From Anaerolineales bacterium (lineage in GTDB: Bacteria > Chloroflexota > Anaerolineae > B4-G1 > SLSP01): a DNA stretch of 37,469 bases. The stretch is taken from assembly GCA_046541755.1 (NCBI GenBank), contig JBKHCQ010000003.1, forward strand, positions 1 to 37,469, read 5' to 3'. The position numbers and the translations under genes were made by a program. Under the pieces are notes generated by a model, which did not search any database, was not told where the DNA came from, and worked only from the letters and a program-made list of their open reading frames with translations. The first letter of the stretch is position 1, and each line of letters opens with the position of its first letter. Shown here one piece after another: positions 139 to 37,313 of the stretch.

Positions 139-528
139 ATGGGAGCCAAAATTTTATATATTGAAGATAACTTTGCAAATCGGATGTTAGTTTCGCGAGT
201 TCTCATGGTTGAGGATTACGAGGTCTTCGAGGCTGAGGATGGCCCAACGGGCATCGAGTTGGCGCTTAGAGAGCAGCCGGATTTGATCTTGATGGATGTG
301 AACTTGCCCGACATTGACGGTTACGAATTGACCGCGAAGATGCGGGATATCCCAGAATTGGCCGGCACGCCCATCATCGCGATGACGGCCAATGTTATGC
401 AGGGGGATCGCGAGAAGAGCTTGGAGGCGGGCTGTGATGGTTACATCCCTAAGCCGATTGACGTCGATTCCTTGCCGGGCCAAATTGCTGATTTCCTGGA
501 GAAGCAGGCGCGAGGGGAGTTACGGTAG
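139..528 (+). CDS. Single-domain response regulator (REC, DivK-like)
   Basis: 129 aa with KILYIEDN, PDLILMDVNLP (phosphoacceptor Asp), PIIAMTA and GCDGYIPKPID. No output domain. Confidence 0.95.
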   Translation: MGAKILYIEDNFANRMLVSRVLMVEDYEVFEAEDGPTGIELALREQPDLILMDVNLPDIDGYELTAKMRDIPELAGTPIIAMTANVMQGDREKSLEAGCDGYIPKPIDVDSLPGQIADFLEKQARGELR

Positions 529-591
529 CTCAGGGCATCAAAAATAGTCTTCTCCACATACACTATTCGTAGTTTTTGAGGATGTGATTCA

Positions 592-1005
592 ATGGCGGGA
601 ACACCTCCCTCAGAGGCAACGATTCTAATCGTTGAGGATAACCTAAATAACTTTATCTTGATGACGCGCTTGCTGGCTTACTTGGGGGTCAAGCGGTGCG
701 AGTGGAAGGCCTCTGGATGGAAGGTGTTGGAATTCGCTGAGACGTTGGGTGATATTGATTTGATCCTGATGGATATTTTCCTGCCGGCGGCGGATGGATA
801 TGAGTCCCTGGCATCGCTGCGGACGCACCCGCGTTTCGAAAACGTGCCCATCGTCGCAGTGACCGCTGATGCTTCGGTGGAGAACTTGCAACGCGCGCGC
901 GCGGCCGGCTTCGATGGTTTTATTGGCAAGCCCTTAGACTCCGATCGTTTCCCCGAACAGGTGCGCCGGTTACTGAATGGTGATGAGGTATGGGAACGGG
1001 AGTGA
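592..1005 (+). CDS. Single-domain response regulator (REC, DivK/CheY-like)
   Basis: 137 aa with ILIVEDN, DLILMDIFLP, PIVAVTA and GFDGFIGKPLD. All canonical receiver residues are present and there is no output domain. Confidence 0.93.
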   Translation: MAGTPPSEATILIVEDNLNNFILMTRLLAYLGVKRCEWKASGWKVLEFAETLGDIDLILMDIFLPAADGYESLASLRTHPRFENVPIVAVTADASVENLQRARAAGFDGFIGKPLDSDRFPEQVRRLLNGDEVWERE

Positions 1006-3470
1006 CCCGCCAGGGTGAGGCTCCTGATGTCGCCCGAACGATTCCAACCACCGGCATGCGGGGCGGTTTAGGGCGCACGCTCCTCACCGCTTTCTTGATC
1101 CTGGCGATTGTGCCCTTGGGATTGATTGGTAGTTATGCTCTGCAACAAAATCGCAAGAATCTGCAATTAGAAGTGGAGCGTAAACTTCAGACCCTGGCTA
1201 TCTTGAAAGGGGAAGCGTTACGGCGTTGGTTTGAGGATTTACATACCTCGTTCCGTCTGACGCTTTCTCTATCTCAGACGCAATCGCTGTCCGCGTCGGA
1301 GTCCGCGCGTCGCGCGTGGTGGACGAATATGACAGCTCAGATGCCCGACCTGCGCGGTGTATGGGCTGTGGATCAAACCGGGCAGACGATATGGTTGCTG
1401 GGAACTTGTCCTCAAATCAATGATCACCTCCCCCCTGGTGTGACGCCCTCGGTGATAACCGCGCCATCATCTGTGCCATCTGAATGGCCATCTGAGCCGA
1501 TGATGTTTTCTATCTTTTATCCAGAAGCGTCGGAGACTGACGGGGCTATGGTGGCCCTGGCGCTTTCTTATGAGACCGAAAACGGGACCGAAAACGAGAC
1601 CGAAACCTATATCTTTTGCCTGGCGGCTGAGAGGCTCTGGGATGTGATCGGGGCGCAGCATGGGGAAAACGCAGCCAATAACTTCTTTTTGGTGCATCAC
1701 GATTGCCTGTGGGCGCGGCAAGGTGTATGCACCGCGCCGGCTGAGGAAAGTATCATTGGAGAGAATCTGGTCAGCGGATTTTACGAGAACCATCAGGGCG
1801 CGACTGTGTTGGGCGCCTACTATCCGATGCCGGCGCTGGACGCGGGCATCCTAGTGGAACAGAATCAGGCCGAGATGATGGCCTCCTCGGATCGAATGGC
1901 GGCGACCTTTATCGCGTTGGTGCTGGCGGGCGCGATTGCTACGACAGCCATCTCCGCCATCGTGATCCGGCAAATTACGCGCCCCGTGATTCAATTGACC
2001 GAGTCGGCGGTGGCGATGGCCGAGGGCGATTTGGATCAGTCCGTGGCCGTCACCTCGCGTGATGAGATTGGGATCTTGACCTACGTCTTCAACGAGATGG
2101 CTGCTGAGCTAAAGTCGCTCTACGAGGACCTGGAAGCGAAGGTCGCGGTGCGGACGCAAGAGCTTCAGCGCGCGAACTATCAGATCCAGCGCCGCGCGTT
2201 GCACTTTCAGGCCAGCCAGGAAGTGAGCCAGGCCATCACCTCGATTCGCGATCCGGAGTTGCTGCTCAGTCGCGTAGCCGACCTGATCCGCGATCACTTC
2301 GTCTACGCTTCCGTGGCGGTCTATCTAGTCGAACCGGGCGGCGGCGAGATTCGACGTCGCGCGCTCAGCCCGATGGCTGGGGAATGGCCGGAACGTTGCT
2401 ACCCCGGCGATGGCAGCGTTGTGGATCGCGCGGTTCGTAGTCGCGAAGCGCAAGTGATCGCCGAGACGTTGGGCGGCGAGGAGGAGGTCCCGTGGCATCA
2501 GCGGTTGCGATGTCAAGTGGCCGTCCCCTTTCGGATGTCGGCAATCAGCAGATCCTCGGATCTCCCGGCGGAGCGCGTCTTGGGCGCGATGGCCGTTAGC
2601 TCGACCGGGCGGGAGCGCATCCAGGAGGATGAAGTCACCGTCCTGGAGATCTTGGCCAATCAAGTGGCCATCGCGTTGGAGAACGCCGAGGCTTATGAGC
2701 GCGAACGGCAGGCCGCCGAGCAGTTGGAGGAGGCGGAGGCCTTCAAATCGCGCTTTTTGGCGAATATGTCGCATGAATTGCGCGAGCCGCTGAATACGAT
2801 TATCGGCTTCTCCCGCCTGATGCTCAAGGGCATCGATGGCCCGTTGAATGAGCGCCAGATTTTGGACTTGGAGCAGATTTACAACGACAGCAAACATCTC
2901 CTCTTCTTAATCAACGACATCCTGGCAATTTCGCAGATTCAGGCGGGCTTGATGGAGTTGAAATTACAGCCGGTCGATTTCCAAGAGATTGTCACCGGTG
3001 TGATGCCGACGGCCAGCGCGTTGGTGCGCGGCAGGGATATCGAGTTGGTGCGGGAGATCGCCGCTGATCTGCCGATGCTGCGGGTGGATCCCGCGCGATT
3101 CCGGCAGATCCTCGTGCATCTCTTCACCAACGCGGCGAAGTTTACCGAGGAGGGGCGCATCACCCTCCGGGCGTGGTATCCAGAGGGCGGGCCAGGGGAT
3201 CGGGTGTACATCAGCGTGAGCGATACCGGCATCGGCATCCCCGTGGAGGATCGGAATCGAATCTTTGTGAAATTTGAGAAAGGGCAGGATCGGCAGGCAA
3301 TCGAAATGGCGGAGCGGCGGCGCCCCGGGGCGGGATTGGGGCTAGCGTTATCCAAAGAATTTGTGGAGATGCACGGCGGTCAAATCTGGGTCGAAAGCGA
3401 AGTGGGGAAAGGCAGCACCTTCACCTTCTCGGTGCCTTGCTATCGAACCTCAGAGTCAGAGATAAGTTGA
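990..3470 (+). CDS. Membrane sensor histidine kinase (TM-Cache-like ectodomain-TM-HAMP-GAF-HisKA-HATPase_c)
   Basis: Two hydrophobic segments, HAMP (ITRPVIQL..DEIGILTYVFNEM), GAF (..VAVPF..LANQVAIALENA), H-box FLANMSHELREPL, N-box TNAAKFT, G1 DTGIGI, G2 GAGLGLA, and GGQIWVESEVGKGSTFTF. The start overlaps the upstream gene and could be slightly later. Confidence 0.95.
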   Translation: MGTGVTRQGEAPDVARTIPTTGMRGGLGRTLLTAFLILAIVPLGLIGSYALQQNRKNLQLEVERKLQTLAILKGEALRRWFEDLHTSFRLTLSLSQTQSLSASESARRAWWTNMTAQMPDLRGVWAVDQTGQTIWLLGTCPQINDHLPPGVTPSVITAPSSVPSEWPSEPMMFSIFYPEASETDGAMVALALSYETENGTENETETYIFCLAAERLWDVIGAQHGENAANNFFLVHHDCLWARQGVCTAPAEESIIGENLVSGFYENHQGATVLGAYYPMPALDAGILVEQNQAEMMASSDRMAATFIALVLAGAIATTAISAIVIRQITRPVIQLTESAVAMAEGDLDQSVAVTSRDEIGILTYVFNEMAAELKSLYEDLEAKVAVRTQELQRANYQIQRRALHFQASQEVSQAITSIRDPELLLSRVADLIRDHFVYASVAVYLVEPGGGEIRRRALSPMAGEWPERCYPGDGSVVDRAVRSREAQVIAETLGGEEEVPWHQRLRCQVAVPFRMSAISRSSDLPAERVLGAMAVSSTGRERIQEDEVTVLEILANQVAIALENAEAYERERQAAEQLEEAEAFKSRFLANMSHELREPLNTIIGFSRLMLKGIDGPLNERQILDLEQIYNDSKHLLFLINDILAISQIQAGLMELKLQPVDFQEIVTGVMPTASALVRGRDIELVREIAADLPMLRVDPARFRQILVHLFTNAAKFTEEGRITLRAWYPEGGPGDRVYISVSDTGIGIPVEDRNRIFVKFEKGQDRQAIEMAERRRPGAGLGLALSKEFVEMHGGQIWVESEVGKGSTFTFSVPCYRTSESEIS
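1572..1607 (+). repeat. 3 x 12-nt tandem repeat (G[A/G]GACCGAAA[A/C]C) in the kinase ectodomain
   Basis: gagaccgaaaac gggaccgaaaac gagaccgaaacc, encoding ETENGTENETET. Confidence 0.8.
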
Positions 3471-3506: not shown

Positions 3507-5459
3507 GTGAGCGAAGAACAGAATACAACAGATAAAAACCTATACGACGTTGACAAGCGCGCGGAGCGGGCCGTCTTTAGTTGGCGTCAAACGTTGATCG
3601 ACCGGGCGTTAAAGATCCTCGCGCTCGTGCTGTTGCCCGTGGCCGTCGGCAGCTTCTACGTTCTCCAACAGGCTGGGATCGCCGGCATGCTCCCGATTGT
3701 GCTCCTCGCCTACCTGATATTGGCGCTCAGCGCGTTGCTCTCGCAGATCCCCTATCCCTGGCGCGTCCGGGGATTCTTGGCCGCGATCTATCTGGTCGGC
3801 GTCGGCGAGTTGATCTTTCTGGGCTGGGGGATGAACGCGCGCCTCTTATTGCTGGCCTTCCCGCTCTTCGCCATCATCTTTAACGGCGCGCGCGAGGGGT
3901 ACATCACCTTGGGCATCGCCAGCGCGACGTTGTGGGGCTTTATCGTGGGGGAACGGGCGGGCGGGCTGCCGATCGTCGGCGCTCAAGTCGCGGCGGGGCC
4001 GAGCGGATGGATCACATTGCTTGTTGGGTGGGGACTCTTCACCGTCTTAGGCGGGGGAGGCTTGGCTTCCTTGGATTATCTCTATCCGCGTATGTTGCGG
4101 GTCATTGATCACCTGCGAGATCGTGTTCAGGGGGTAGAGGCGGAGCGCGAGGAGCTACAGGAGCGGTTGCAGATGCTGCAGGCCTCGAACCTCACCTTTC
4201 AACGGCGCGCGATGTATTTGGAGGCCAGTTTGGAGGTCTCGCAGGTGCTTTCGACTTTGTTCGAAGTCGAACCGCTGTTGGATCGGGCGGTGAATTTAAT
4301 CACCCAGCACTTTGGATTCTACCACACCGGCATCTTCTTGATGGATGATGCCGGCGAGTGGGCCATCCTGCGGGCCGCATCCTCCGCCGGCGGGCGCCGG
4401 ATGTTGACCAAGGGGCATCGTCTGCGCCGAGGCAGCGATAGCATGGTTGGCTGGGTGGTGAAGCGCCGCCAGCCGCGCATCGCGGCGGATGTCGGCGCGG
4501 ACGCCGTTCACTTCGAGAACCCCGATCTGCCGGCGACGCGCTCGGAGATCGCGCTGCCCCTGATGGTCTCCGGGCGCGTGATCGGCGTGTTGGATGTGCA
4601 GAGCACGGAGGAGGCGGCCTTTGATCAGGATGATGTCCGCGCGCTGGAGGGGTTGGCGGGCCAGCTTTCGGTCGCGATCCACAACGCGCGGCGTTTGAGC
4701 GAGGAGGCGTCGCTGTTGGAGGCGACCAGCCCCTTCTATCGCCTGGCGCGCCGCTTGGCCACGGCCCGCACGGAGCGTGAAATCCACACAGCGATGTTGG
4801 GCGCGGCGCAGGATTTCAATCCGATGCGAAGCGTCATCGTGCGAGGCCGCTTGGAAGTTGGAGATCAGCAGCTTTCTGAATCTGCGCATCGCGCCCTCGT
4901 CATTGCAGCCGAGATGCGGCGCGGTAAATTGTACATCCCGGAGCAGCCGGTGTTGACGGCGGAGACGGCGGACTATTACACACACGTCATGCGCTTAGCT
5001 CGCGCCCAGGCGGAACCACTGCTCATTGCCGATCTCTCGGATCTGCCAGCGGCGCCCGCGTCGGAGGCGCTCCAGCAGGTCGTCGCGGAGAGCAGGGCCG
5101 CCGCCGAGGCGCGGAGCTTGGCCCTGATCCCCATTCGAGTTGAGGAGACGCTTTTGGGCGCTTTGATGGTCTTGTACGGCACGGTGCACGAGTTCGCGCC
5201 GTTGGAAGCGCGGCTCTATCGCGTGTTGGGCGATATGGGCGGCTTGGCGTTGGATAACGCCCGTCTCTTAGTCGCTGCGCAGGAGCGCGCGGAACGGGAA
5301 CAATTGACCTCCGAAATCTCGGCGCACGTCCAGGCGGCTGCTACCGACATCGATGAGGTGTTGCAGACGACCTTGCGGGAGTTGGGTGTGGCCCTGCAAG
5401 CGTCCGGGACAATTCTTCTCGGCTCCGGCGACCGTCAAAAAGATGGGGTGAGTAGGTAG
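3507..5459 (+). CDS. Receptor paralog 1: multi-TM - coiled coil - GAF - GAF - C-terminal tail; no catalytic output
   Basis: GTG start after GGGGAG. About 5-6 hydrophobic segments, GAF1 (FYHTGIFL..FENPDLPATRSEIALPL..LDVQS), a longer second GAF ending ALDNARLL, and the tail AEREQLTSEISAHVQAAATDIDEVLQTTLRELG. Confidence 0.9.
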   Translation: MSEEQNTTDKNLYDVDKRAERAVFSWRQTLIDRALKILALVLLPVAVGSFYVLQQAGIAGMLPIVLLAYLILALSALLSQIPYPWRVRGFLAAIYLVGVGELIFLGWGMNARLLLLAFPLFAIIFNGAREGYITLGIASATLWGFIVGERAGGLPIVGAQVAAGPSGWITLLVGWGLFTVLGGGGLASLDYLYPRMLRVIDHLRDRVQGVEAEREELQERLQMLQASNLTFQRRAMYLEASLEVSQVLSTLFEVEPLLDRAVNLITQHFGFYHTGIFLMDDAGEWAILRAASSAGGRRMLTKGHRLRRGSDSMVGWVVKRRQPRIAADVGADAVHFENPDLPATRSEIALPLMVSGRVIGVLDVQSTEEAAFDQDDVRALEGLAGQLSVAIHNARRLSEEASLLEATSPFYRLARRLATARTEREIHTAMLGAAQDFNPMRSVIVRGRLEVGDQQLSESAHRALVIAAEMRRGKLYIPEQPVLTAETADYYTHVMRLARAQAEPLLIADLSDLPAAPASEALQQVVAESRAAAEARSLALIPIRVEETLLGALMVLYGTVHEFAPLEARLYRVLGDMGGLALDNARLLVAAQERAEREQLTSEISAHVQAAATDIDEVLQTTLRELGVALQASGTILLGSGDRQKDGVSR

Positions 5460-5461
5460 AG

Positions 5462-7858
5462 GTGAGCGGTATGATTATGAGGAAAAACAGAGTTAGTATC
5501 CAGGAGCGGCCAGCGCTAAGAGTTTATCGGTGGGTAGCCGGGATGCTGTTGGCGTTGATGGTGATAGGCCTGGCGCCGCGATCCTCCTATGCGCAAGGTG
5601 TGCTATCCTCCGCTCGACCCGGAGATCGGAATGATGCGCCGGCCCGCTCGGCGGAGCTTCAGGAGCCGGATGGCGAGCGACGCGCGGTATGGATATTGAA
5701 TTCCTATCATCACGGGCTGTCGTGGACGGATGACATCGTGACGGTCATCGATGCGACGTTGACGGGGCCGGAAAGTGATGTGACGGATGAGGTGGAATTG
5801 TACATCGACTACATGGATACCAAACGGCTGCCCTTCGATGAGGCGTATGCGCGGGAACTCTACGAGATGTATCGGGAGAAATATCGCGATGTCGCGTTCG
5901 AGGTCATCATCGTCTCCGATAACTATGCCTATGACTTTATGCGTCAATACCATGACCAGCTTTTCCCGGAGGCGCCCGTCGTCTTCTGCGGCGTGAACTT
6001 CTTCCAGCCGCAGGATTTGGAGGGACACGAGATGTTCACCGGCGTCGTAGAAGAGGTGGACATCGATGCTACGTTGGAGGTCGCGTTAGCCTTGCATCCC
6101 CAGACTGAGCAAATCGTCGTGGTCAACGACGCGACGGCGACCGGCCAGTTGATCCAGGACGAATTTGAGCGAGTTCGCGGGCTTTATGAAGATCAGGTGG
6201 AGTTCGTCGTTTATCAGGGCTTATCGCTCGGAGAATTGCGGGCCGAGCTGAGCGAATTACCGGAGAACAGTTTAATCCTCCTTATCCTTTTTAATCGCGA
6301 CGGGGCGGGCCGATTTTTCACCTACGAGGAGAGCATCGAACATATTTACGCGGCCACCGATCGTCCTATCTACGGCCTGTGGGATTTCTACATAGGGTAC
6401 GGGCTGGTTGGCGGGATGTTGGCGAATGGCCCGGCGCAGGGTGAGGCGGGGGCCAAGTTGGCGGCGCGAATTTTGGAGGGAGAGTCGGTCCAATCGATCC
6501 CCGTGATGCGCGAGAGTCCTAATCGATATATGTTCGATTATGAACAGTTGGAGCGCTTGGGCATCTCGATTCAAGCGTTACCGGGCTATAATCCCAATCT
6601 ACCGGGTTTCAGCGTCATTATCAATCGGCCGCCGACCTTTGCGGAGCGTTTTGGACCTGGCTTGGTCATCGGGACTGTGGTGGTGATGATATTCGCGGGG
6701 ATTTCGGCCTTGCAGTTCAACAACTTGCACAAGCAGCGCGAGATCCAGGCCAAGTTGCGCGAAAGCAACCTGGCATTGGAAGCATCCCGCGAGGTGCTGG
6801 AGACGCGCGTCGCGGAGCGGACGACAGAGTTGCGACGTCGTTCGGAGCAACTCGAGGCGGCTGCTGTGGTGGCCCGCGATGCGGCGGCTATTCGCAGCAT
6901 TGACCAGTTGATGGAGACGATGGTCAATCTGATCTCCGAGCAGTTCGATTTTTATCACGCCGGCATCTTTTTGGTGGACGAATCGCGGGAATACGCCGTG
7001 TTGGAGGCCGCTTCCTCGGAAGGCGGGAAGCGGATGTTAGAGCGCGGCCATCGATTGCGCGTGGGCGAGGAGGCCAACGCCCAGGGCATCGTGGGCTACG
7101 TAGCGATGCACGGCGAGCCGCGCATCGCTTTAGATGTCGGTCAGGATGCGGTGTGGTTCGATAATCCCGATCTGCCAGAGACGCGCTCGGAGATGGGCCT
7201 CCCGTTGATGATCCGGGATGAGGTCATCGGGGTGCTGAACGTGCAATCGAAGCGCGAGGCGGCCTTCTCCGACGAGGACATCTCGGTATTGCAGACGATG
7301 GCGGATCAGCTAGCGTTGGCGATCCGCAACGCCCGCCTTTTGACGGAAAGTCAGCGCGCTTTGGAGCGCTTGGAGATGCTCTATGGCGAGCGTGCGCAGC
7401 ATGCGTGGCGCGAAGAGGTTAGGGCGCGTGGTTATCGTTATGATGGCATCGTGCTCTCGAAGCTCCGCGGCGCGGGCGCTGCGCGACCGGTTCCTGCGGA
7501 GACGCCCCTCGAAGATGTGCAGGAAAATGAGGCCGGTCAACTAGTCGTGCCCATCCTCTTGCACGATCAAGTCATTGGGCAGATTGTCCTGGAGCGCGCG
7601 GGCGCCGATGCTGCGTGGACGGAGAATGAGAAGGCGCTGGCGCGCACCATCGGCGCTCAGGCAGGCCTCGCTTTGGAGAGCGCCCGGCTCTTGCGGGCGT
7701 CCCAGGCGCAAGCGGTCCAGGATCGCCTGCTCAGCGATATCTCTGGTCGCGTGCGAGAGACACTGGATATTGATATGATGTTGCAGACGGCCGTGCGCGA
7801 AATTGGGCAAGTGTTGGATCTGGCAGAGGTCGAAGTGCGTCTGACGGGCGCCGAGTAG
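5462..7858 (+). CDS. Receptor paralog 2: ABC-type substrate-binding-like ectodomain - TM - GAF - partial GAF - tail
   Basis: N-terminal hydrophobic/signal segment. Motifs ILNSYH..W..D, YMDTKR, PVVFCGVN, TGVVE, GLVGG and YMFDY are typical of ABC_sub_bind-like sensor ectodomains fused to kinases. Then a TM, LETRVAERT, the conserved GAF1, and the tail ..VRETLDIDMMLQTAVREIG..VEVRL. Alternative starts at 5471/5477. Confidence 0.9.
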   Translation: MSGMIMRKNRVSIQERPALRVYRWVAGMLLALMVIGLAPRSSYAQGVLSSARPGDRNDAPARSAELQEPDGERRAVWILNSYHHGLSWTDDIVTVIDATLTGPESDVTDEVELYIDYMDTKRLPFDEAYARELYEMYREKYRDVAFEVIIVSDNYAYDFMRQYHDQLFPEAPVVFCGVNFFQPQDLEGHEMFTGVVEEVDIDATLEVALALHPQTEQIVVVNDATATGQLIQDEFERVRGLYEDQVEFVVYQGLSLGELRAELSELPENSLILLILFNRDGAGRFFTYEESIEHIYAATDRPIYGLWDFYIGYGLVGGMLANGPAQGEAGAKLAARILEGESVQSIPVMRESPNRYMFDYEQLERLGISIQALPGYNPNLPGFSVIINRPPTFAERFGPGLVIGTVVVMIFAGISALQFNNLHKQREIQAKLRESNLALEASREVLETRVAERTTELRRRSEQLEAAAVVARDAAAIRSIDQLMETMVNLISEQFDFYHAGIFLVDESREYAVLEAASSEGGKRMLERGHRLRVGEEANAQGIVGYVAMHGEPRIALDVGQDAVWFDNPDLPETRSEMGLPLMIRDEVIGVLNVQSKREAAFSDEDISVLQTMADQLALAIRNARLLTESQRALERLEMLYGERAQHAWREEVRARGYRYDGIVLSKLRGAGAARPVPAETPLEDVQENEAGQLVVPILLHDQVIGQIVLERAGADAAWTENEKALARTIGAQAGLALESARLLRASQAQAVQDRLLSDISGRVRETLDIDMMLQTAVREIGQVLDLAEVEVRLTGAE

Positions 7859-19008: not shown

Positions 19009-19055
19009 TGCGATGCAATGCGATACAATGCGAAAATAGATTAGGAGGTCATACT

Positions 19056-25408: not shown

Positions 25409-27088
25409 ATGTTGAATCGCATCAGGCAATGGTTGGCGCCGCCGGTATTTGAAGACGAGGGCCAGACGCGCTCCGCCGCGTTGCTCAATGGATTATTGCT
25501 GCTATTGCTGGCCGCGACGATTCTGGGGACGGCCATCGTGCTGCCGTTGGAGCCGGAAGAATGGATTTTCAACGCCATCTTCGGCGTGCTGTTGTCCGGA
25601 TTATTCCTCTGGTTCCGCCGCCTGGTGCGGCAGGGACGCTTGCGAGGCGTCAGCTACGTGCTGGCGTCGGTGCTGTGGGTGAGCGTCACCGTGCTGGTGC
25701 TGATGGGCCAAGGTCTGCGCGACTCCAGTGTGGTGGGATACTTCTTGGTCATCGCCTTTGCCAGTTTGTTGCTGGGGGGGGGCGGCGTGTGGATCTATGG
25801 CATCTTGAGCGTGATAGCCCTGACCGCCATGTACGTTGCCGAAATTGTGGGACTATTGGATGTCACACCCGCTGCCAGTGTCAGAGTTGCTGATTGGATG
25901 GTGATCAATCTGGTGTTGTTCTTGACGGCCTCGCTCTCGCGCTCAGCTGTGAACGCCCTCGATAGGACGGTGAGCCGCTTGCGCGAGAACGAAATCGCGC
26001 TGGCCGAGAGCAACCGCGCGTTGCAGGCGGAAAGCGCCAGACTGGAGGCCCGCACGAACCAATTAGAACATCGCACCAGCCAGTTGCGCGCTATCACCGA
26101 ACTCGGTCGCATCACCACCACCATTCATGAACAGGAGACCCTGTGCGCTATCGTGCCAAAGTTGATCGGCGAACGGCTGGAATTGGATTACGTTGAGCTG
26201 TTCCTGGTGGATGAGGCGCAAGCGCACCTAGTCTTACGCGGTGGCTATAGCTCATCCGGCACGGATCTACTCCTGGGCCGTGAGTTGCCGCTTCGGGCTG
26301 ACGATGTGGTCGCCACGACAGCCGTTACTGGAGAGGCGCGTCTGTTGGCAGAGACGGACGATGCCGCCTTCCCGGAGACTCACTCGCGGCTCGTGTTGCC
26401 GATTGCAGGGGGGGCGGATGTGTTGGGCGTCCTCGATCTGCATAGTGCATCCCCCGCTGCTTTCAATCAGCAGGATAGGGTTGCCTTGCAGGGTTTGGCG
26501 GATCAATTGGCCGTAGCGTTGGAGAGCGTGAAATTGTTTACGGAAACCCAAGAGACCTTGGAGATGGCACAACGCGCTTACGGTGAAATCAGTAGCCGAG
26601 CCTGGGGGGAAATGTTACGGAGCGCCGGATTCGCGGGCTTTCGCAGCCGGGAGCATGAAATGTCGCCGTTGGATGCGCGCCTCACGCCCGAGATCGAACA
26701 TGCCCTGCGGGAGAAACAATTGGTGCATATTCCCGGTGACGCGCAGAATGATCACCTTTTGGTGCTCCCTATCAAGGTCCGTGATAGAGTGATTGGCGTT
26801 GTGGATACTTATAAGCCGGGACATACCCCGGGGTGGACGGAGACAGAAATCGAGGTATTGCAGGAACTTTCGGAGCGGCTAGGGATGGCCTTAGAAAGCG
26901 CCCGCCTCTACCAGGATACGCAGCGCCGCGCGGCCCGCGAGCAGTTGACGGGTGAGGTTACCGCTCGCATCCGCGAGACGTTGGATGTGAACAAAGTCTT
27001 GCAGACGGCGACGCGCGAGATGCGCCGGGTGTTAGATCTCGCGGAGGTCGAAATTCGGATGGGCTTGGACGCCTCGGAGAGAGAGTAG
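25409..27088 (+). CDS. Receptor paralog 10: multi-TM - shortened GAF - partial GAF - tail
   Basis: WLAPPVFEDE..TR.A.LL N-terminus, ~6 TM, GAF1 with an internal deletion (AFPETHSRLVLPI), and ALESARLYQDTQRRAAREQLTGEVTARIRETLDV..VLQTA..VEIRM. Confidence 0.9.
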   Translation: MLNRIRQWLAPPVFEDEGQTRSAALLNGLLLLLLAATILGTAIVLPLEPEEWIFNAIFGVLLSGLFLWFRRLVRQGRLRGVSYVLASVLWVSVTVLVLMGQGLRDSSVVGYFLVIAFASLLLGGGGVWIYGILSVIALTAMYVAEIVGLLDVTPAASVRVADWMVINLVLFLTASLSRSAVNALDRTVSRLRENEIALAESNRALQAESARLEARTNQLEHRTSQLRAITELGRITTTIHEQETLCAIVPKLIGERLELDYVELFLVDEAQAHLVLRGGYSSSGTDLLLGRELPLRADDVVATTAVTGEARLLAETDDAAFPETHSRLVLPIAGGADVLGVLDLHSASPAAFNQQDRVALQGLADQLAVALESVKLFTETQETLEMAQRAYGEISSRAWGEMLRSAGFAGFRSREHEMSPLDARLTPEIEHALREKQLVHIPGDAQNDHLLVLPIKVRDRVIGVVDTYKPGHTPGWTETEIEVLQELSERLGMALESARLYQDTQRRAAREQLTGEVTARIRETLDVNKVLQTATREMRRVLDLAEVEIRMGLDASERE

Positions 27089-31345: not shown

Positions 31346-33057
31346 ATGCAATACGAGGATGGTTAAGAGGATGGTTCAATCGATATCTTGATGTGCCGGC
31401 GGAGGATGCGATTATCAGACAGCGACACCGCTCCTTCTTGATCCTCCTCTTGATCATAGCGGGCGCCTCTGTCGTAGGGGTGTTTCAGGTTTTAATCTTT
31501 TACCCGCACCTGGAATCGATGATCCTGATGGTTTTCGCCACTGTGTTGATCGTTGTCCTGGCGTGGTTCACACGGCGCCAACATCACTGGCCGCCTTACG
31601 TCTTTCTGATATTCTTGATGTTCGTCATTCATTACCAATTTGGGTGGGCCATTAACAGCCCGTTTGCTCTATTATTTGCCTTGCCGGTCATCAGCGCGCC
31701 ATTAATTGCCCCGCCGTGGACGGCGCTATTCGTGGCCGGCATTGAGGCCCTGATATTGTATGTCATCGGGGGAGAGGACGCCTTGGGACTTTTGCCCCTT
31801 ATGATCTTGGGGATTTTGGGAGGCGTGGCATGGATCTCCAGCGCGAGCCTGGTGCAATCCGTTACGCAGGCTCATGAGAATGCGGAATCGCTGGCGGAGA
31901 GCAACGAGGAATTGTTAGAAAGACAGGAAGAGCTGCGTCAACGCACGGCGGAACTGGAGCGCCGAACGCGCTATATGCAGGCGACGGTGACCGTGGCGCG
32001 GGCGGCGGCTTCCGTGTTGGATGTGCAGGAATTGCTGACGCGGGTCGTCAATCTGGTGAGCGAGCAGTTTGGCTTTTATCACGCCGGCCTGTTTTTGATC
32101 GATCGCGGTGGAGAGTGGGCGGTCTTGCAAGCGGCCTCCAGCGCGGGCGGCCAGCGGATGCTGGCGCGCGGCCATCGCCTCCGCGTGGGAGCGCAGGGTA
32201 CGGTGGGCTACGTCACCAAGCATGGCGAGGCGCGCATCGCCTTGGACGTGGGCGAGGACGCGGTCTTCTTCGATAACCCCGATTTGCCGAACACCCACTC
32301 GGCGGTGACCTTGCCCCTGCGCGCGCGCGGCGAAATCATCGGCGCGCTGGATGTGCAGAGCGGCGAGCCGGCCGCCTTCACCCAGGAAGAGGCCGCGGTA
32401 TTGCAGGCGCTGGCCGATCAGGTCGCCCTGGCCATCAGCAACGCGCGCCTCTTCGCGCAGGCGCAGGAGAGCTTGGAGGCGGAGCGCCGCGCCTACGGCG
32501 AGATGGGGCGGGAGGCTTGGACGGAATTATTACAGCTTCGCCGCGAACTGGCCTATCGCGGCGATGAGGAAGGCGTCGCCGCGGCGGAAGACGATTGGCG
32601 GCCTGAGACGAAGCGCGCGTGGCAGGAAGCCGCCGTGACCGTGCATCAGGATGAGGGCACGGGCGAGGCGTCGTTGGCCGTGCCAATCCAAGCCTCTGGC
32701 CGGGTGATCGGCGTCATCGATACCTACAAGCCGGCCGGGGCGGGGGATTGGAGCCGGGAGGAAATCCGACTGGTAGAGAATCTCGCGGAGCAATTGAGCG
32801 TCGCATTGGAGAGCGCGCGTTTCTACGAGGACATCCAGCGCCGCGCGGCCCGCGAGCGCTTAACTCGTGAAATCACGGATCACATTCGTCAGGCATCGGA
32901 TATAGAGACCTTGATCAAGACCACGGTGCAGGAAATCACAGACGTATTGCAGACCTCTTCCACCTTTGTTAAATTACATCCATCAGAAGAGACGCCAGAA
33001 GAGACGCCGGCGGCGAGTGATGCGCCTGATGCCGCAATCCCGAGGGAGGAGCTATGA
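31342..33057 (+). CDS. Receptor paralog 12: multi-TM - GAF - partial GAF - tail
   Basis: ATG 31342 overlaps the upstream TGA (ATGA) after GGGGGAG. About 5-6 TM, GAF1 FFDNPDLPNTHSAVTLPL, and ALESARFYEDIQRRAARERLTREITDHIRQASDIETLIKTTVQEI. Confidence 0.9.
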   Translation: MNAIRGWLRGWFNRYLDVPAEDAIIRQRHRSFLILLLIIAGASVVGVFQVLIFYPHLESMILMVFATVLIVVLAWFTRRQHHWPPYVFLIFLMFVIHYQFGWAINSPFALLFALPVISAPLIAPPWTALFVAGIEALILYVIGGEDALGLLPLMILGILGGVAWISSASLVQSVTQAHENAESLAESNEELLERQEELRQRTAELERRTRYMQATVTVARAAASVLDVQELLTRVVNLVSEQFGFYHAGLFLIDRGGEWAVLQAASSAGGQRMLARGHRLRVGAQGTVGYVTKHGEARIALDVGEDAVFFDNPDLPNTHSAVTLPLRARGEIIGALDVQSGEPAAFTQEEAAVLQALADQVALAISNARLFAQAQESLEAERRAYGEMGREAWTELLQLRRELAYRGDEEGVAAAEDDWRPETKRAWQEAAVTVHQDEGTGEASLAVPIQASGRVIGVIDTYKPAGAGDWSREEIRLVENLAEQLSVALESARFYEDIQRRAARERLTREITDHIRQASDIETLIKTTVQEITDVLQTSSTFVKLHPSEETPEETPAASDAPDAAIPREEL

Positions 33058-33136: not shown

Positions 33137-35467
33137 ATGGCGGATAAAAGAGCTGCCGGAGGAAAACCGTCGGTAATCAGTGGATCTTCTGATCTACTAC
33201 TTGGCACATCCATTGGGCGCCGATTGAGTCGCAGAATTCTGCTGTTGAGCATCATCACCGTGATCGTGATGTTGGGAACAATGTACCTGGGGGTGGGGAG
33301 CGTCTTGAATGCATCCAGCCGAGGGCTTTTGACAGCGCGCGGGGAGGCCGAGCAGATTTTCACGCGATTTTTGGAAGGTATCTTCCAGGATTTGCGCGCC
33401 ACCAGTGATGCGCTGGCTGTGGGGGACGATCCTGATGCGCTCTTCCGTCAGGCCTTAGATCGTCAGACCGCCTACGTCGACATCCGCCTGATCGCCCCAC
33501 GCGGGGAGGTGCTCGCGAGCCGGCGACGTTCGGGGGTCGCCCCCGCCTCGGTGGCGACCCAACCATGGTTGACGACGATGGTCGTCGGCGAGATTTATTT
33601 TGGCTCGGTGGATTATGAGGAATACGGCGCGCCGATTGTCGCCATCGCTGTCCCGGTGGAGGATGAAGCGGGCAATTTCTACGCTTCGTTGGTCGCGCAA
33701 GTGGATCTGACCGCGCTATGGGATATCGTCGCCGGCTTCAACGTCGGCGACGAGGGCCATGTCTACGTCTCCAGTTGGAGCGGCATGGTGATCCTGCATC
33801 AGGATTTAGATTTCGTGCAGAAAAAAATATCTGGAGATCCGAATACGGGAGAGTTGTTCCCTATGCCTAACCCGCGCGAGATTGCCGAAGAGGACTATAT
33901 GTTTTATAGAGGGCATCGCGACGAATGGGTCTTTGCCTCGGCCGCGCCGATTATCCCGGATGTGACGCACTGGTATGTGGTGGTGGAGCGGCCCGTCGCT
34001 GAAATCTTCCGTCCGTTGATCACCGAGGGCGTGATCATTCTGATCTTGTTTATTGGCATTGTGGGCGGCGTGTTGGACATCTTGAACTTCACGCGCCGGC
34101 GCATCGTTTATCCCCTGCGCGTTTTGCATAAGAATGTCCTGGCGTTGGGCGAAGGAGATCTAGAGCGGCGTATCCCACTGGAGATAGATGATGAGTTCGG
34201 CGTGTTGGCCGCGACGTTGAACACCCTGGCGTCTCAGTTGCAAGAGATCATCAATACGCTGGAACATCGGATTGCAGAGCGCACGCGCGGCTTGCGGGCG
34301 GCGGCGGATATCTCACGCGCGACGACCACCGTGTTGGACCCCGATGAGTTGCAGCGCGAGACCGTGGACTTGATCCGCGAGCGTTTTGATCTCTACTACG
34401 TCGGCCTCTTCTTGGTGGATGAGACGGAGGCGTATGCAGTATTGCGCGCCGGCACCGGGGAAGCGGGTCGGAAGATGTTGGAGAGTGACCACCGGCTGCG
34501 CGTCGGCGGCGCGACGATGATTGGACAGTGTGTGTCGACCGGCGAAGGGCGGATTGCGCTCGACGTGGGGGAGGAGGCCTCGCGCTTTGATAATCCCCTG
34601 TTGCCCGAGACTCACTCGGAGATGGCCCTGCCGCTCCAAGCGCGCGGGCGCATCATCGGCGCGTTGAGTGTGCAGAGCAAGGAAATCGCTGCATTCGACG
34701 AGGCCGACATCGCCGTGATGCAGACGATGGCCGACCAAGTGGCCGTGGCCATCGACAACGCGCGGCTCTTCACTGAATCGCAGGCGGCCCTGGAGGAGAT
34801 GGAAGAAATCCAGCGCCGCTACACGGAACAGGCGTGGGGCGCCTTCACCCGTAAACGAGCCATCAAAGGCTACGAGCAGACAGCGACGGGCCTGCGGCCC
34901 TTGGACGAAGCGGCCCATCAGAATGAAATCCAAACGGTATTTTCCGCCCTGCGCACCGGCGAACCGAGCGCGCGATCACTGGTGTTTGGGGAGGGCGGGG
35001 AACGCTCCTCACAGATAGCCAGCAAAATCCTGGCCCCCATCTTGCAACGCGAGCGCCCCATCGGCGTTTTGGGCTGTGAGGCTCACGCTGAAGGGCGTCG
35101 CTGGAGCAAAGACCAAGTCGCTTTGGTCGAGACCATCGCCGAGCAATTTGCCATCGCGGCGGAGAACCTGCGGCTCTTGGATGAAACGCAGCGCCGCGCG
35201 GCCCGCGAGCAGGCCGTGACGGAGGTCACCGCCAAGATCCGGGCGGAGGTCGAGATCGAAGCGATGTTGCAGGAGGCCCTCACGGAGCTGGGGCAGGTGC
35301 TGGGCGCTGATCGTGGCCTCGCCCACCTCGCGCTGGGAGAGGAGAGCCTGCTGGAAGAGGAAGAGACGGAGCGGCCTGCAAGTGGCCCCGTAAGTGAAGA
35401 AGACGGTGCCGGCCTTCAAGCGCAGCAGGACGGAAACGGAAACGAAAACGGAAACGAAAACGGATAG
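33137..35467 (+). CDS. Receptor paralog 13: TM - dCache-like - TM - HAMP - GAF - partial GAF - tail
   Basis: RBS GGAGG. PIVAIAVPV, GDEGHVYV and HWYVVVERP are Cache-like. HAMP DEFGVLAATLN, GAF1 RFDNPLLPETHSEMALPL, AENLRLLDETQRRAARE, and an acidic tail ending GNGNENGNENG. Confidence 0.9.
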   Translation: MADKRAAGGKPSVISGSSDLLLGTSIGRRLSRRILLLSIITVIVMLGTMYLGVGSVLNASSRGLLTARGEAEQIFTRFLEGIFQDLRATSDALAVGDDPDALFRQALDRQTAYVDIRLIAPRGEVLASRRRSGVAPASVATQPWLTTMVVGEIYFGSVDYEEYGAPIVAIAVPVEDEAGNFYASLVAQVDLTALWDIVAGFNVGDEGHVYVSSWSGMVILHQDLDFVQKKISGDPNTGELFPMPNPREIAEEDYMFYRGHRDEWVFASAAPIIPDVTHWYVVVERPVAEIFRPLITEGVIILILFIGIVGGVLDILNFTRRRIVYPLRVLHKNVLALGEGDLERRIPLEIDDEFGVLAATLNTLASQLQEIINTLEHRIAERTRGLRAAADISRATTTVLDPDELQRETVDLIRERFDLYYVGLFLVDETEAYAVLRAGTGEAGRKMLESDHRLRVGGATMIGQCVSTGEGRIALDVGEEASRFDNPLLPETHSEMALPLQARGRIIGALSVQSKEIAAFDEADIAVMQTMADQVAVAIDNARLFTESQAALEEMEEIQRRYTEQAWGAFTRKRAIKGYEQTATGLRPLDEAAHQNEIQTVFSALRTGEPSARSLVFGEGGERSSQIASKILAPILQRERPIGVLGCEAHAEGRRWSKDQVALVETIAEQFAIAAENLRLLDETQRRAAREQAVTEVTAKIRAEVEIEAMLQEALTELGQVLGADRGLAHLALGEESLLEEEETERPASGPVSEEDGAGLQAQQDGNGNENGNENG
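35430..35464. repeat. Hexamer repeat (ACG[G/A]AA)~6 at the 3' end of paralog 13
   Basis: acggaa acggaa acgaaa acggaa acgaaa acgga. Confidence 0.8.
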
Positions 35468-35480
35468 GATGGAGACCGAT

Positions 35481-37313
35481 ATGAACGAACAACTCGATAA
35501 CAAACCCGGGGCTGGGGCGTTCGAGACCCTGATAGCCGATGGTGAGGCCCAGAAAATCACCCTTGCCGGCATCTGGCGCTCGTTAGTATCCGCAGAAATT
35601 TACGAGAGCGAGGAAACCGCGCGGGTTGCTCGTCTGTTCAATAACTTGATGATCGTAGGCGGGATCCTTACGCTCCTCTTTATCGGAATCTTTATGATCG
35701 CCCAGGCCAGAGGACTGTTCCTGCGGCCGTTCGAGGGCTGGCTTGGCGCGACGTTCCCGGCGTCGTTGTTCCTGATCGCGGCCTTTGCTATCTGGCAGGT
35801 GAAGGCGGGCCACCTAGAGACGATGATCAAATTCTACATCTGGAGCGTATTTGTGGGCCTTCTGCTGGCCGTTGTGCTCTACGATGGCGCGCGTTCTGCC
35901 GCCTGGTTTCTCTTCTTCTGGCCCGTGATGTTAGCGGGCACCTTTATGGAGCCGGATGATGCGTTACGGATGGCGCTGGGCCTCTTTATATCCTATGGCC
36001 TGGTGTACTTACTGGAAGCTTGGGAAATTTACGCGCCGCCTATCATCCTTACCGAAGCGGCCTATCGTTTTATCAGCTTGGCTTTTGGCCTCTTGATGAT
36101 CGGGGCCACCACCGGCGTGGTTAACTTTATCAACATGCGCAGTTTGCGGCAGGCGATAGCGAAAATGCGGCAGACGGAGCAAACATTGCAGGAGACGCGG
36201 CGTTCACTGGAGCAGCGCGTCGAGGAGCGCACCGCCGAGTTGAAAAAGCAGGCCACCCAGCTCGAGACCATCACCCAATTGAACCGGATGGTCGCGACCT
36301 TGCCCGACCTCCAGAGTGTGCTCGATACCTCCGCTCAACTGATCTCCGAGCGGTTGGGATATTATCACGCTGGCATCTTCCTGTTGGGGCCGGAGCGCAA
36401 ATGGGCCGTGCTCCAGGCTGCATCGTCGGAAGGGGGGCAGAAGATGTTGGCGCGCGGCCATCGCCTGCGTGTGGGCGAAGAGGGCGTAGTGGGCTACGTC
36501 GCGCACACCGGCCTCCCCCGGATCGCTTTAGACGTCGGCGAGGATGTCATGTGGTTCGATAACCCAGATCTTCCCAACACCCGCTCCGAAATCGCCTTGC
36601 CCTTGGTCGCGCGCGGCCAAATCTTAGGCGTGCTGGATATCCAGACCGAAGAGCGCGAAGCCTTCATAGAGGACGATATCAAAGTCCTGCGCGTCTTGGC
36701 GCGCGGCACAGCCATCGCCATCGATAATGTGCGGACATTAGAAGAGATGCGCGATACATTAGATCGCTTGGCCCGTTATCAGGAGCGCGATGCGTTACAA
36801 GCGTGGCGACACGCTCTCGCCCGCCGGAATATGCAGGTGGACTTATCCTACGTCGCCGGCCTGACCCGCGAGGCCGACCCGCAAGAGGTGGCCGCCATCC
36901 AGACCCATGCGCCGGCCACCCTCGCGGAGATGACCACACTGGAGACGCCTTCGGGCACGCATCGGCTGCTGGCCCCGATTTACGTGCAGGGCCGTTCCTT
37001 GGGCGTGTTGGCCTTTGATAAATCCGAACCGTGGCAACCGGAGGAACTGCAACTCTCGCGGGCGGTGGTGACGCAGTTGGAACTGGCGTTGGAGAACGCG
37101 CGTCTGCTGGAGGAGACGCGGCTCCGCGCATCTCAGGAGCGCGCGCGCGGCGAGATCGTGTCCAAAGTCCGCTCGATGGGCTCCGTCGATGCGATTTTGC
37201 GCAGCGCCGCCGAGGAGTTAGGGCAAGCGCTCCGCGTGGAGCGCAGCCGGATCCAGTTGATGCCCCCTGGCGAGGAAGCGCGCCCGTCGCGCGTAGGCGA
37301 ACCTTCGGAATAA
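35481..37313 (+). CDS. Receptor paralog 14: multi-TM - GAF - partial GAF - tail
   Basis: ATG 35481 after GGAG (alternative 35469). About 6 TM, LEQRVEERT, GAF1 WFDNPDLPNTRSEIALPL, and ALENARLLEETRLRASQERARGEIVSKVRSMGSVDAILRSAAEELG..SRIQL. Confidence 0.9.
   Translation: MNEQLDNKPGAGAFETLIADGEAQKITLAGIWRSLVSAEIYESEETARVARLFNNLMIVGGILTLLFIGIFMIAQARGLFLRPFEGWLGATFPASLFLIAAFAIWQVKAGHLETMIKFYIWSVFVGLLLAVVLYDGARSAAWFLFFWPVMLAGTFMEPDDALRMALGLFISYGLVYLLEAWEIYAPPIILTEAAYRFISLAFGLLMIGATTGVVNFINMRSLRQAIAKMRQTEQTLQETRRSLEQRVEERTAELKKQATQLETITQLNRMVATLPDLQSVLDTSAQLISERLGYYHAGIFLLGPERKWAVLQAASSEGGQKMLARGHRLRVGEEGVVGYVAHTGLPRIALDVGEDVMWFDNPDLPNTRSEIALPLVARGQILGVLDIQTEEREAFIEDDIKVLRVLARGTAIAIDNVRTLEEMRDTLDRLARYQERDALQAWRHALARRNMQVDLSYVAGLTREADPQEVAAIQTHAPATLAEMTTLETPSGTHRLLAPIYVQGRSLGVLAFDKSEPWQPEELQLSRAVVTQLELALENARLLEETRLRASQERARGEIVSKVRSMGSVDAILRSAAEELGQALRVERSRIQLMPPGEEARPSRVGEPSE

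Follow-up and report, generated by a model that had tools for sequence, protein, structure and literature searches.

The stretch of DNA analysed here (37,469 bases, hereafter the window) is one whole contig, C3, of the metagenome-assembled genome (MAG) of an Anaerolineales bacterium (3.62 Mb in 483 contigs, 81% complete), and it covers, from the 5′ end, some three-quarters of a signalling island that measures about 50 kb and is conserved in Anaerolineae-type Chloroflexota. The island begins with two stand-alone receivers (RR1 and RR2), continues with a long array of co-oriented sensors, here called receptors, that share one C-terminal module built of GAF pieces and ending in a tail of 49 residues, and closes with a hybrid histidine kinase. 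From the homology of the tail to a part of that kinase, and from the order in which the genes are kept among relatives, these kinase-less sensors are probably linked in function to a shared phosphorelay by protein contact through their constant module.

The receptors and their constant module

The original prediction, made from the letters of the window alone, described 14 co-oriented paralogs with diverse inputs and a common non-enzymatic C-terminus, next to two receivers and one kinase. Both descriptions are borne out, the former by the open reading frames (ORFs), Pfam and a hidden Markov model (HMM) of the module, and the latter by Pfam, which finds in the window two stand-alone receivers, one membrane kinase (HK826), the 14 GAF paralogs and four other genes. 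Every long ORF of the window lies on the + strand, so that all genes are co-oriented; the 14 receptor ORFs are all present, each start given in the original prediction is an ATG or GTG, and longer upstream starts are also open at 10392, 17281, 28901, 31066 and 35394. The receivers, the kinase and the receptors are listed below, where the E-values for the tail come from the tail HMM of the next section and dN/dS (the ratio of nonsynonymous to synonymous substitution rates, by the method of Nei and Gojobori) compares this genome with its congener G001.

139-528 (+): RR1, stand-alone receiver, 129 aa (Pfam Response_reg, E 3.8e-26)
592-1005 (+): RR2, stand-alone receiver, 137 aa (Pfam Response_reg, E 4.4e-19)
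990-3470 (+): HK826, membrane sensor kinase with two transmembrane (TM) segments (TM-like at 30-48 and 308-326), HAMP, signalling helix, GAF, HisKA and HATPase_c (Pfam)
3507-5459 (+): receptor 1; MASE11, GAF, insert, mini-GAF, tail (Pfam; tail E 4.5e-16, ending 14 aa from the C-terminus; G001 ortholog 86% identical, dN/dS 0.19)
5462-7858 (+): receptor 2; TM, periplasmic ABC_sub_bind-like domain (19.5 bits, under the Pfam cut-off of 25.9), TM, GAF, mini-GAF, tail (tail E 7.9e-20; dN/dS 0.15)
7894-10128 (+): receptor 3; dCache_1, HAMP, GAF, mini-GAF, tail (tail E 2.3e-20; dN/dS 0.17)
10425-12290, alternative start 10392 (+): receptor 4; MASE11, divergent first GAF with a His- and Leu-rich insert, mini-GAF, tail (tail E 3.9e-20; dN/dS 0.27 overall, the top value of the 14, and 0.38 in the N-terminal part)
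12315-14318 (+): receptor 5; two TM, HAMP, GAF, mini-GAF, tail, acidic extension (tail E 6.8e-16, ending 42 aa from the C-terminus; dN/dS 0.15)
14318-17137 (+): receptor 6; soluble, without a TM-like segment, LacI-type Peripla_BP domain (Peripla_BP_3, E 3.2e-33), GAF, mini-GAF, tail (tail E 1.1e-20; dN/dS 0.15)
17323-19008, alternative start 17281 (+): receptor 7; MASE11, GAF, mini-GAF, tail (tail E 5.4e-21)
20076-21965 (+): receptor 8; two TM, HAMP, GAF, mini-GAF, tail (tail E 2.8e-20; dN/dS 0.12)
21962-23911 (+): receptor 9, the reference protein for models and searches; two TM, weak Cache-like match, HAMP, GAF, mini-GAF, tail (tail E 2.8e-22)
22937-23353 (+): GAF1 of receptor 9, residues 326-464 (Pfam GAF_2, E 4.2e-27)
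23459-23737 (+): mini-GAF of receptor 9, about residues 500-592 (strands and helices at residues 214-303 of the AlphaFold2 model)
23750-23896 (+): tail of receptor 9, 49 residues; junction helix, helix, strand-like end (tail HMM)
25409-27088 (+): receptor 10; polytopic N-terminus, GAF, mini-GAF, tail (Pfam and TM segments; tail E 2.3e-22)
28907-31345, alternative start 28901 (+): receptor 11; two TM, large periplasmic part, HAMP, GAF, mini-GAF, tail (tail E 1.8e-22; dN/dS 0.12)
31342-33057 (+): receptor 12; polytopic N-terminus, GAF, mini-GAF, tail (tail E 2.0e-20; dN/dS 0.10)
33137-35467 (+): receptor 13; dCache_1, HAMP, GAF, mini-GAF, tail, low-complexity extension (tail E 6.3e-18, ending 45 aa from the C-terminus)
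35481-37313, alternative start 35394 (+): receptor 14; polytopic N-terminus, GAF, mini-GAF, tail (tail E 3.3e-16)

The input modules comprise MASE11 (three receptors), dCache_1 with HAMP (two), Peripla_BP (one), an ABC_sub_bind-like domain (one) and polytopic regions without a Pfam name (three), and the four further receptors have two TM segments, a periplasmic part without a Pfam name (one of them with the weak Cache match) and HAMP; TM-like segments are found in 13 of the 14. Pfam assigns a GAF domain to every receptor (whole-protein E 1e-9 to 1e-29) and a second GAF stretch to 11, and the module HMM finds the mini-GAF module in all 14. No HisKA, HATPase, GGDEF, EAL, PP2C, cyclase, HTH or MCPsignal domain was detected in the 14 receptors (Pfam, E ≤ 0.01), and receptor 14 shows no output domain even at E ≤ 10. 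Additionally, none of the six receptors scanned against NCBIfam matches a family above its curated cut-off.

The C-terminal part of about 340 residues can be aligned over its full length in the 14 receptors, the 13 paralogs being 29-51% identical to receptor 9, and the full-module HMM recovers all of them (domain E 9e-39 to 1e-65). It consists of a signalling helix with the pattern L-E-x-R-V-x-E-R-T, which we take to be an S-helix signature, a canonical GAF (GAF1), a long helix with Y-G-E...A-W, a small alpha/beta domain, and a very conserved helix (T-Q-R-R-A-A-R-E...) followed by a second helix and a short strand-like end. The C-terminal 360 residues of receptor 9 were modelled with AlphaFold2 (AF2) from an alignment of 75 rows (predicted local distance difference test, pLDDT, 84.8; predicted template modelling score, pTM, 0.58). 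The model shows a complete GAF1, a helix of 54 residues, a domain of five strands and one helix that runs into a helix of 46 residues, and at the end a helix of 16 residues followed by 14 residues without assigned structure. The top Foldseek matches in the PDB are all GAF domains (fRMsr, Lcd1, PtsP-GAF and the tandem GAFs of PDE, E about 2e-10).

The small domain is a compact, reduced mini-GAF without the usual first helix. It corresponds to the C-terminal half of a GAF and is matched as such to GAF1 (hhalign probability 97.9%, E 4.8e-13), it falls on positions ~57-133 of the 133 of the Pfam GAF profile (E about 1e-8 to 1e-9 in the three C-terminal fragments scanned), and its coupled columns in a direct-coupling analysis are compatible with an antiparallel sheet. 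What had been called a partial GAF can be described more exactly by AF2, as a five-stranded unit with one short helix and, at its C-terminal end, a long one; by profile and by fold, both GAF1 and the mini-GAF belong to the GAF superfamily. In agreement with the original prediction, neither Foldseek, nor a comparison of the tail profile with solved structures, nor the ESM Atlas, where residues 560-649 retrieve solely the same Chloroflexota GAF clusters, revealed a catalytic or DNA-binding fold in the C-terminus.

A circularly permuted GAF, in which the tail folds back on the mini-GAF sheet and fills the position of the absent first helix, was hinted at by hhalign. It is unsupported by the couplings: among 406 distinct modules (effective number of sequences, Neff, 359), one of the 50 strongest pairs links the tail to the body and about 27 are internal to the tail, and two tail-body pairs of an earlier run (Neff 187) are gone at Neff 359. 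In the AF2 model the tail stays at the end of a straight helix. The couplings and the model together are not a strong exclusion of the permuted form.

The tail as a piece of the kinase

The tail HMM (49 columns) was searched against the 18,690 six-frame ORFs of the genome and matches exactly 15 of them, the 14 receptors of the window and one 1323-aa HAMP-multi-GAF protein on another contig, C31 (E 2e-22 to 3e-11; next best 0.16), and between the end of each match and the C-terminus there are 3-45 aa. Full modules were also pooled from fetched loci and database proteins, 420 in all; 335 of the 418 with a known stop end within 20 residues of it and 399 within 60, the other 19 ending more than 60 residues before it. 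The consensus is retained across the window's own order and across two more distant families, f4 and f13.

What the original prediction had left as a tail is the N-terminal helix-plus-strand piece of a further GAF and, judged by profile homology, it is a retained copy of the opening part (junction helix, first helix, first strand) of the GAF found immediately before the dimerization and histidine phosphotransfer (DHp) domain in the hybrid kinases. It matches the first 49 aligned positions of this kinase-proximal GAF in 12 hybrid kinases (hhalign probability 92.9%, E 3.6e-7) and, among solved GAFs, the N-terminal ends of 8w26 (residues 10-53, independent E 1.4e-5) and of 6oap (residues 108-181, 2.5e-10, a stretch that includes part of the preceding helix). 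A conserved cut point within a GAF domain is an oddity of protein evolution that could point to a new form of domain coupling in trans.

It was also considered that the tail might be a degenerate DHp, as MAFFT had placed the H-box of the kinase under it. This was rejected, since the DHp profile of the hybrid kinases gives no match (probability 0.3%, E 0.21) against E 3.6e-7 for the GAF N-terminus. A histidine does occur in the tail helix of four of the 14 receptors (1, 3, 11 and 12), one position off the H-box register of the kinase, and the remaining ten have R, Q or K at this position, which makes the histidine unlikely as a phospho-acceptor.

The island in this genome and in relatives

The contig C31 carries a solute-binding protein (L015, 185-1438), the 1323-aa HAMP-multi-GAF protein (L015, 1438-5409) and a soluble, multi-GAF hybrid kinase of 2417 aa ending in HisKA-HATPase-REC-REC (L015, 5707-12960). 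In G001 the ortholog of receptor 14 directly precedes the counterparts of these genes, and this gene-for-gene synteny indicates that C31 directly follows C3. The island of this genome (G000) thus totals 15 output-less sensors, 14 in the window and one on C31. The claim of a single kinase therefore holds for the window and fails for the locus, which continues with the hybrid kinase.

Seven relatives of the window's own order were picked for long arrays on long contigs, and their flanks were fetched blind. In all seven the array begins directly after an ortholog of HK826 (sensor part 31-79% identical), preceded by RR2 (72-97% identical) in the six loci for which the region was fetched; RR1 is complete in five of these six and cut at the fetch edge in G018, the fetch of G017 starting inside the kinase. 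RR1 orthologs, with 53-94% identity, head the islands of relatives, and the genes upstream of RR1 vary from genome to genome (xanthine dehydrogenase subunits, DNA ligase, a CLC channel), so that the linkage is specific to the island. At the 3′ end, a homolog of the ABC_sub_bind-type solute-binding protein of C31 is present in six of the seven own-order islands (none in G023), where it is followed by a HAMP-multi-GAF protein of 1000-1500 aa, and the gene that closes each of the seven codes for a hybrid kinase (1360-2400 aa) combining HisKA and HATPase_c with two receivers.

Five distant loci, four of f4 and one of f13 (a family placed by the sampler outside the window's class), have RR1-RR2 (53-58% identical) followed directly by tail-bearing proteins, HK826 being found in none of the five, and they also end 3′ in a hybrid kinase, which in f4 has the form PAS-PAS-GAF-HisKA-HATPase-REC-REC. 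The RR2 of G288 and G045 was placed through the RR2 search of a phylum sample described below. The 12 islands fetched end to end contain 17, 17, 33, 10, 14, 13, 9, 10, 10, 11, 11 and 11 tail-bearing genes, which in every island lie on one strand between RR1-RR2 and the hybrid kinase, and 165 of the 166 tail matches are C-terminal. Accordingly, of the two outcomes foreseen in the original prediction, clustered relatives or scattered singletons, it is clustering that is observed (9-33 genes per island, in 12 of 12).

In all four f4 loci and in G023 the island includes a gene for a ParA/MinD-like ATPase (Pfam AAA_31, E 2.8e-51), at L025 17785-18573 (-) and with equivalents in L027, L029, L033 and L014. 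In f4 it precedes the hybrid kinase; the island of the present genome does not hold this gene, the best match in the genome being 36% identical and on contig C242.

The linkage was also followed in a sample of 300 genomes of the phylum, in which 11 candidates per genome were scored, so that per-genome counts are lower bounds. Two of the sampled genomes, G073 and G288, were assembled as a single contig. The module is present at E ≤ 1e-25 in 24 relatives, concentrated in f4 (19 of 19 genomes) and f13 (2 of 2). One strong RR2 ortholog (E ≤ 1e-49, 54-60% identity) is found in 24 relatives, 23 of which are also family-positive; of these 23 genomes, 22 have it on the contig and strand of the array and on its 5′ side, the exception, G032, being fragmented. 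The best match to the hybrid-kinase profile (A4) shares the strand of the array and lies on its 3′ side in 22 of 24 genomes, the other two being G036 and G220 (G220, 58% complete, has one weak family match and no RR2). Eleven further genomes have weaker RR2-like matches (E 1e-32 to 1e-37, 41-50% identity) and no family match. Conserved partners, which the original prediction had proposed to look for, are found on both sides of the array, and the prediction was right to allow for a partner encoded outside the window: the universally linked kinase is the hybrid kinase, here on C31, and the kinase of the window is linked in the seven loci of its own order and in none of the five of f4 and f13.

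Evolution and selection

All 14 receptors have their own ortholog in G001, in the same order and with 73-89% identity. Receptor dN/dS is 0.10-0.27 overall, 0.13-0.38 in the N-terminal parts and 0.065-0.19 in the last 340 codons, far from the value of 1 that had been named as a sign against the original prediction, and is 0.13 for HK826, 0.055 for RR1 and 0.027 for RR2. One-to-one orthology together with low dN/dS indicates that the paralogs are old and individually maintained. The hybrid-kinase DHp is almost invariant across orders, which, with the value for RR2, fits heavily constrained shared partners. The island of G001 has 17 tail-bearing genes, and on its contig C5 the ortholog of receptor 10 is separated from that of the SBP_bac_1-type protein described below by ~5 kb of additional genes; array size thus changes within a genus.

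The origin of the receptors is suggested by complete forms of the same architecture. Hybrid kinases of the window's own order carry an internal copy of the mini-GAF module; the terminal gene of G023 has the form dCache-HAMP-GAF-mini-GAF-GAF-HisKA-HATPase-REC-REC, and in that of G045 the receptor module is joined to GAF-HisKA-HATPase-REC, the kinase core beginning in both fusions where the tail would stand. The simplest history is that a full kinase of this kind was duplicated and that the copies which became the receptors lost all that lies beyond the first strand of the kinase-proximal GAF. The original prediction had spoken of a system not homologous to known ones, and this stands relative to methyl-accepting chemotaxis proteins (MCPs); within the island it does not, as the receptors are homologous to the N-terminal parts of its own kinases.

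A proposed relay and its alternatives

The proposed mechanism starts from the layout of the island. At its head stand the single-domain receivers RR1 and RR2, with HK826 next in the window's own order; in the middle, sensors with individual inputs and a common transmitter (signalling helix, GAF, mini-GAF and tail) that has no enzymatic or DNA-binding output; and at the 3′ end, a solute-binding protein and the soluble multi-GAF hybrid kinase. The sensors would be kinase-less derivatives of the island's sensor kinase, and their ligand state would be passed to the phosphorelay (hybrid kinase, HK826, RR1/RR2) by protein contact via the constant module, most likely the tail, so that many inputs would be merged on one kinase output.

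How such a contact might be made is a tentative and rather doubtful matter: the tail may be a detachable piece of GAF that docks in trans, by strand or helix complementation on the kinase-proximal GAF, or on the invariant DHp of the hybrid kinase. If this were true, up to 33 membrane sensors would plug into one soluble kinase, and the result would be a many-to-one receptor-kinase assembly built of GAF domains, independent in origin of chemoreceptor arrays and possibly positioned by the ParA-like ATPase. A complex prediction with two GAF-DHp fragments of the hybrid kinase and the mini-GAF and tail of a receptor scored 0.00 against a mark of 0.32 and is not evidence either way. A simpler arrangement, one receptor for each GAF of the giant kinase, was ruled out by the counts (15 tail proteins against about 12 GAF units in G000, 9 against 3 GAF matches in G023, and one GAF in f4 kinases).

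Several observations weigh against a contact-based relay. Gene linkage leaves open which protein, if any, the tail binds, and the absence of HK826 from f4 and f13 means that this kinase is not a universal partner. The kinase-proximal GAF is poorly conserved between orders (34-37% overall identity in A4, mostly due to the DHp) while the tail is conserved, so that docking would have to be structural rather than sequence-specific, or its site would be elsewhere. The relay is also incomplete as seen, with no output regulator in the islands of the window's own order and no Hpt domain in the island, the sole Hpt of this 81%-complete genome lying in a CheA on contig C452. Additionally, the kinase module can exist without receptors: G280 has RR2 and the hybrid kinase and no family match at E ≤ 1e-25 (11 of its 108 candidates scored), and G240 has a strong hybrid-kinase match (E 4e-95, C1 229451-230224) without RR2 or family. 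Finally, the sampled kin are not independent, and the counts of linked loci are descriptive and overstate the number of independent observations. The RR2 ortholog of G280 lies 6.5 kb upstream of a 1344-aa hybrid-kinase match (C148, 9322-17019), and the arrangements of G280 and G240 may be minimal or ancestral forms of the island.

In one alternative, the receptors would form mixed dimers, modulatory or dominant-negative, with the signalling helix and GAF of HK826 or with the GAF and mini-GAF of the giant kinase, blocking trans-autophosphorylation, the tail serving only as a coiled-coil cap. Heteromers between kinases are known, e.g., RetS-GacS, HK826 and the receptors share HAMP, signalling helix and GAF (26-33% identity over these parts), and the giant kinases of the window's order hold the internal mini-GAF module. 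This is nevertheless unlikely, since the arrays are conserved in f4 and f13, where HK826 is absent (0/5) and the f4 kinases (PAS-PAS-GAF-HisKA) lack a mini-GAF, and the conservation of 49 residues from order to order is more than a simple cap would call for. The tail could alternatively be a clustering or positioning signal, directed to other receptors or to the ParA/MinD-type ATPase, with an indirect link to the kinase. ParA-like proteins position chemoreceptor clusters in other bacteria, the island location of the ATPase in f4 and G023 would suit such a role, and the strand-like end of the tail needs a pairing partner. However, the ATPase gene is found in five of the 12 fetched islands only, the present one not among them, and the tail is homologous to a kinase piece; of the alternatives that leave the receptors a function, this is the least probable.

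Between these two in probability, and likewise improbable, is the view that the receptors act off the phosphorelay, through neighbouring transport or binding proteins or a messenger bound by GAF, the linkage being a by-product of common descent from the terminal kinase gene through copying in tandem. Genes that arise in this way remain neighbours by default, the arrays are dotted with solute-binding proteins, and GAF1 is highly conserved among the paralogs, as would be expected of a common ligand. Against it, the paralogs are old, with one-to-one orthologs within the genus, and the arrays are common to several orders and f13; the receiver pair, the array and the kinase keep their order and strand while the outside flanks vary; and Pfam finds no ABC permease or ATPase gene among the window proteins. 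As for decay, the receptors do resemble sensor kinases cut inside a GAF domain, and truncated remnants without a present function might be imagined. This is close to refuted by the purifying dN/dS of all 14 receptors in both halves, by the intact frames, by a cut point that is the same in 399 of 418 modules, and by the number of database relatives given below. Functional linkage to the shared phosphorelay by contact through the constant module is the reading retained in what follows.

Comparison with known systems

The island is best filed as two-component signalling with accessory kinase-less sensors, and its logic would be like that of many MCPs acting on one CheA, or of NreA acting on NreB. 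With the chemosensory pathway it shares many receptors of variable input, a constant non-enzymatic cytoplasmic module, one kinase and single-domain receivers alongside; some chemosensory clusters hold a ParA-like ATPase, as do some of the GAF-sensor islands. It differs in that no MCPsignal domain occurs in the 14 receptors, that the island kinases are of the HisKA type and not CheA, that the island has no CheW, and that its constant module is built of GAF pieces and has its homolog in the sensor part of the kinase itself. The chemosensory genes of this genome are on other contigs (the sole PF00015 match on C481, CheW and Hpt matches on C222 and C452). In total the genome has one MCPsignal match, three CheW-domain matches and one CheA with Hpt, versus 15 tail-bearing GAF sensors.

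In the stressosome, one kinase is held by several paralogous sensors whose N-termini vary and whose C-terminal domain is constant. The likeness lies in this variable-N, constant-C design; unlike the stressosome, the window proteins include no STAS domain and no RsbT-type kinase (Pfam). The likeness to Sda/KipI-type protein inhibitors of sporulation kinases is that of a short helical element that might act on a kinase DHp. The tail has two helices of similar size, a likeness by description only, and unlike these inhibitors it is tethered to a sensor and derived from GAF.

There is also a likeness in module order to multi-GAF or HAMP-GAF sensor histidine kinases of the NarX/NarQ type, laid out as sensor, TM, HAMP, signalling helix, GAF-like domain, DHp and catalytic ATP-binding (CA) domain, with a reduced GAF-like domain that acts purely as a transmitter in NarQ (PMC8199190). 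The order is the same up to the GAF, and the fused kinases of G023 and G045 show the complete form; the receptors, unlike NarX/NarQ, stop 49 residues into the kinase-proximal GAF, without DHp and CA domains, and with no HisKA or HATPase_c in any of the 14 they are not sensor histidine kinases. A precedent is NreA-NreB of staphylococci, in which a GAF protein without a kinase part, NreA, binds a histidine kinase, NreB, and inhibits it (PMC8139620); NreA is a single small, soluble GAF that itself binds nitrate. The islands likewise encode output-less GAF proteins beside a histidine kinase, direct contact being a feature of NreA. They differ from NreA-NreB-NreC in the number and build of the sensors (9-33 per island, multi-domain, most of them in the membrane and with a dedicated tail) and in encoding a hybrid kinase and a pair of stand-alone receivers. 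No account of the receptor family or of the island was found in the literature searched, a search leaving out most subscription journals.

Family size and significance

When the C-terminal 180 residues of receptor 9 were used as the query against protein databases, 1402 of 5463 candidates matched at E ≤ 1e-5, and the receptor family, as delimited by this search, would comprise at least 1402 database proteins. Among the 120 matches listed, only sensor-type Pfam domains, HAMP and GAF occur, and several accession numbers among these relatives are presumed here to denote sensor domains; the relatives named among the matches listed are "GAF domain-containing protein" entries of Chloroflexi or Anaerolineae MAGs. 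Thirty-six matches are to longer proteins, six of which cover at least 91% of the query, five without an output domain and one a kinase. A profile of mini-GAF plus tail (A3) gives 102,174 matches at E ≤ 0.001 among protein representatives, a figure that reflects generic GAF repeats and not family size, and the 150 matches listed for it are giant multi-GAF proteins. In a set of this genome and 30 close relatives, the module is found at E ≤ 1e-15 in 30 of the 31.

The merging of many bacterial signals into one decision is well understood only for chemotaxis, and the island, if the proposed relay holds, would represent a second way of doing so, put together independently from GAF modules. The island is present in whole families of Anaerolineae, known here mostly as MAGs, and Anaerolineae are common in sediments and wastewater sludge. 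The analysis offers a hypothesis at the level of function for at least 1402 proteins now labelled only as GAF domain-containing, a short C-terminal signature by which the family can be recognised, and a set of named candidate partners (the hybrid kinase, HK826, RR1 and RR2).

Other genes and features of the island

Four genes of the window are neither receptors nor part of the receiver-kinase head.

19008-20066 (+): NMT1/SsuA-like solute-binding protein with an N-terminal hydrophobic segment (Pfam NMT1, E 2.4e-49)
23913-24644 (+): VTT/DedA-family membrane protein, a passenger gene (Pfam VTT_dom, E 2.6e-19; ortholog in G001)
24665-25237 (+): class I S-adenosylmethionine (SAM) methyltransferase, a passenger gene (Pfam Methyltransf_11, E 1e-23)
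27093-28865 (+): SBP_bac_1-type solute-binding protein (Pfam, E 4.7e-6; G001 ortholog 91% identical, dN/dS 0.10)

The solute-binding proteins at 19008-20066 and 27093-28865, and that of C31 (L015, 185-1438), have an N-terminal hydrophobic segment and are interleaved among the receptors, some of their genes sharing overlapping stop and start codons with their neighbours, and they may offer ligands to the periplasmic domains of adjacent receptors. The NMT1/SsuA-like protein, whose orthologs are 86% identical in G001 and 59% in the island of G008, is likely to be the ligand-presenting partner of an adjacent receptor. An analogue of CheR was considered for the methyltransferase and ruled out by its generic Methyltransf_11 identity and by its absence from the otherwise syntenic island of G001, where no match was found.

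At 14 of the 20 junctions between neighbouring genes of the window the distance is -16 to +41 nt, which is consistent with co-transcription, and the widest gaps measure 296, 185 and 171 nt; the stop codon of receptor 7 overlaps the start of the following gene. Promoter scans gave 8 and 3 promoter-like sites and terminator scans 15 and 17 terminator-like sites, all within shuffle expectation. The GC content of the window is 54-64%, and GC skew is positive in each 2-kb bin.

In the five f4 and f13 loci, the hybrid kinase is followed by a fusion of a pyridoxal phosphate (PLP) enzyme with a receiver (PALP+Response_reg, ~550 aa; e.g., L025 12999-14651 (-) and L031 4079-5749 (+)), and an EamA transporter also follows the kinase in all five. 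Homologs of the fusion are found in the present genome on contigs C213 (53% identity) and C92, the latter adjoining a second hybrid-kinase-like gene (A4 match, E 6e-81).

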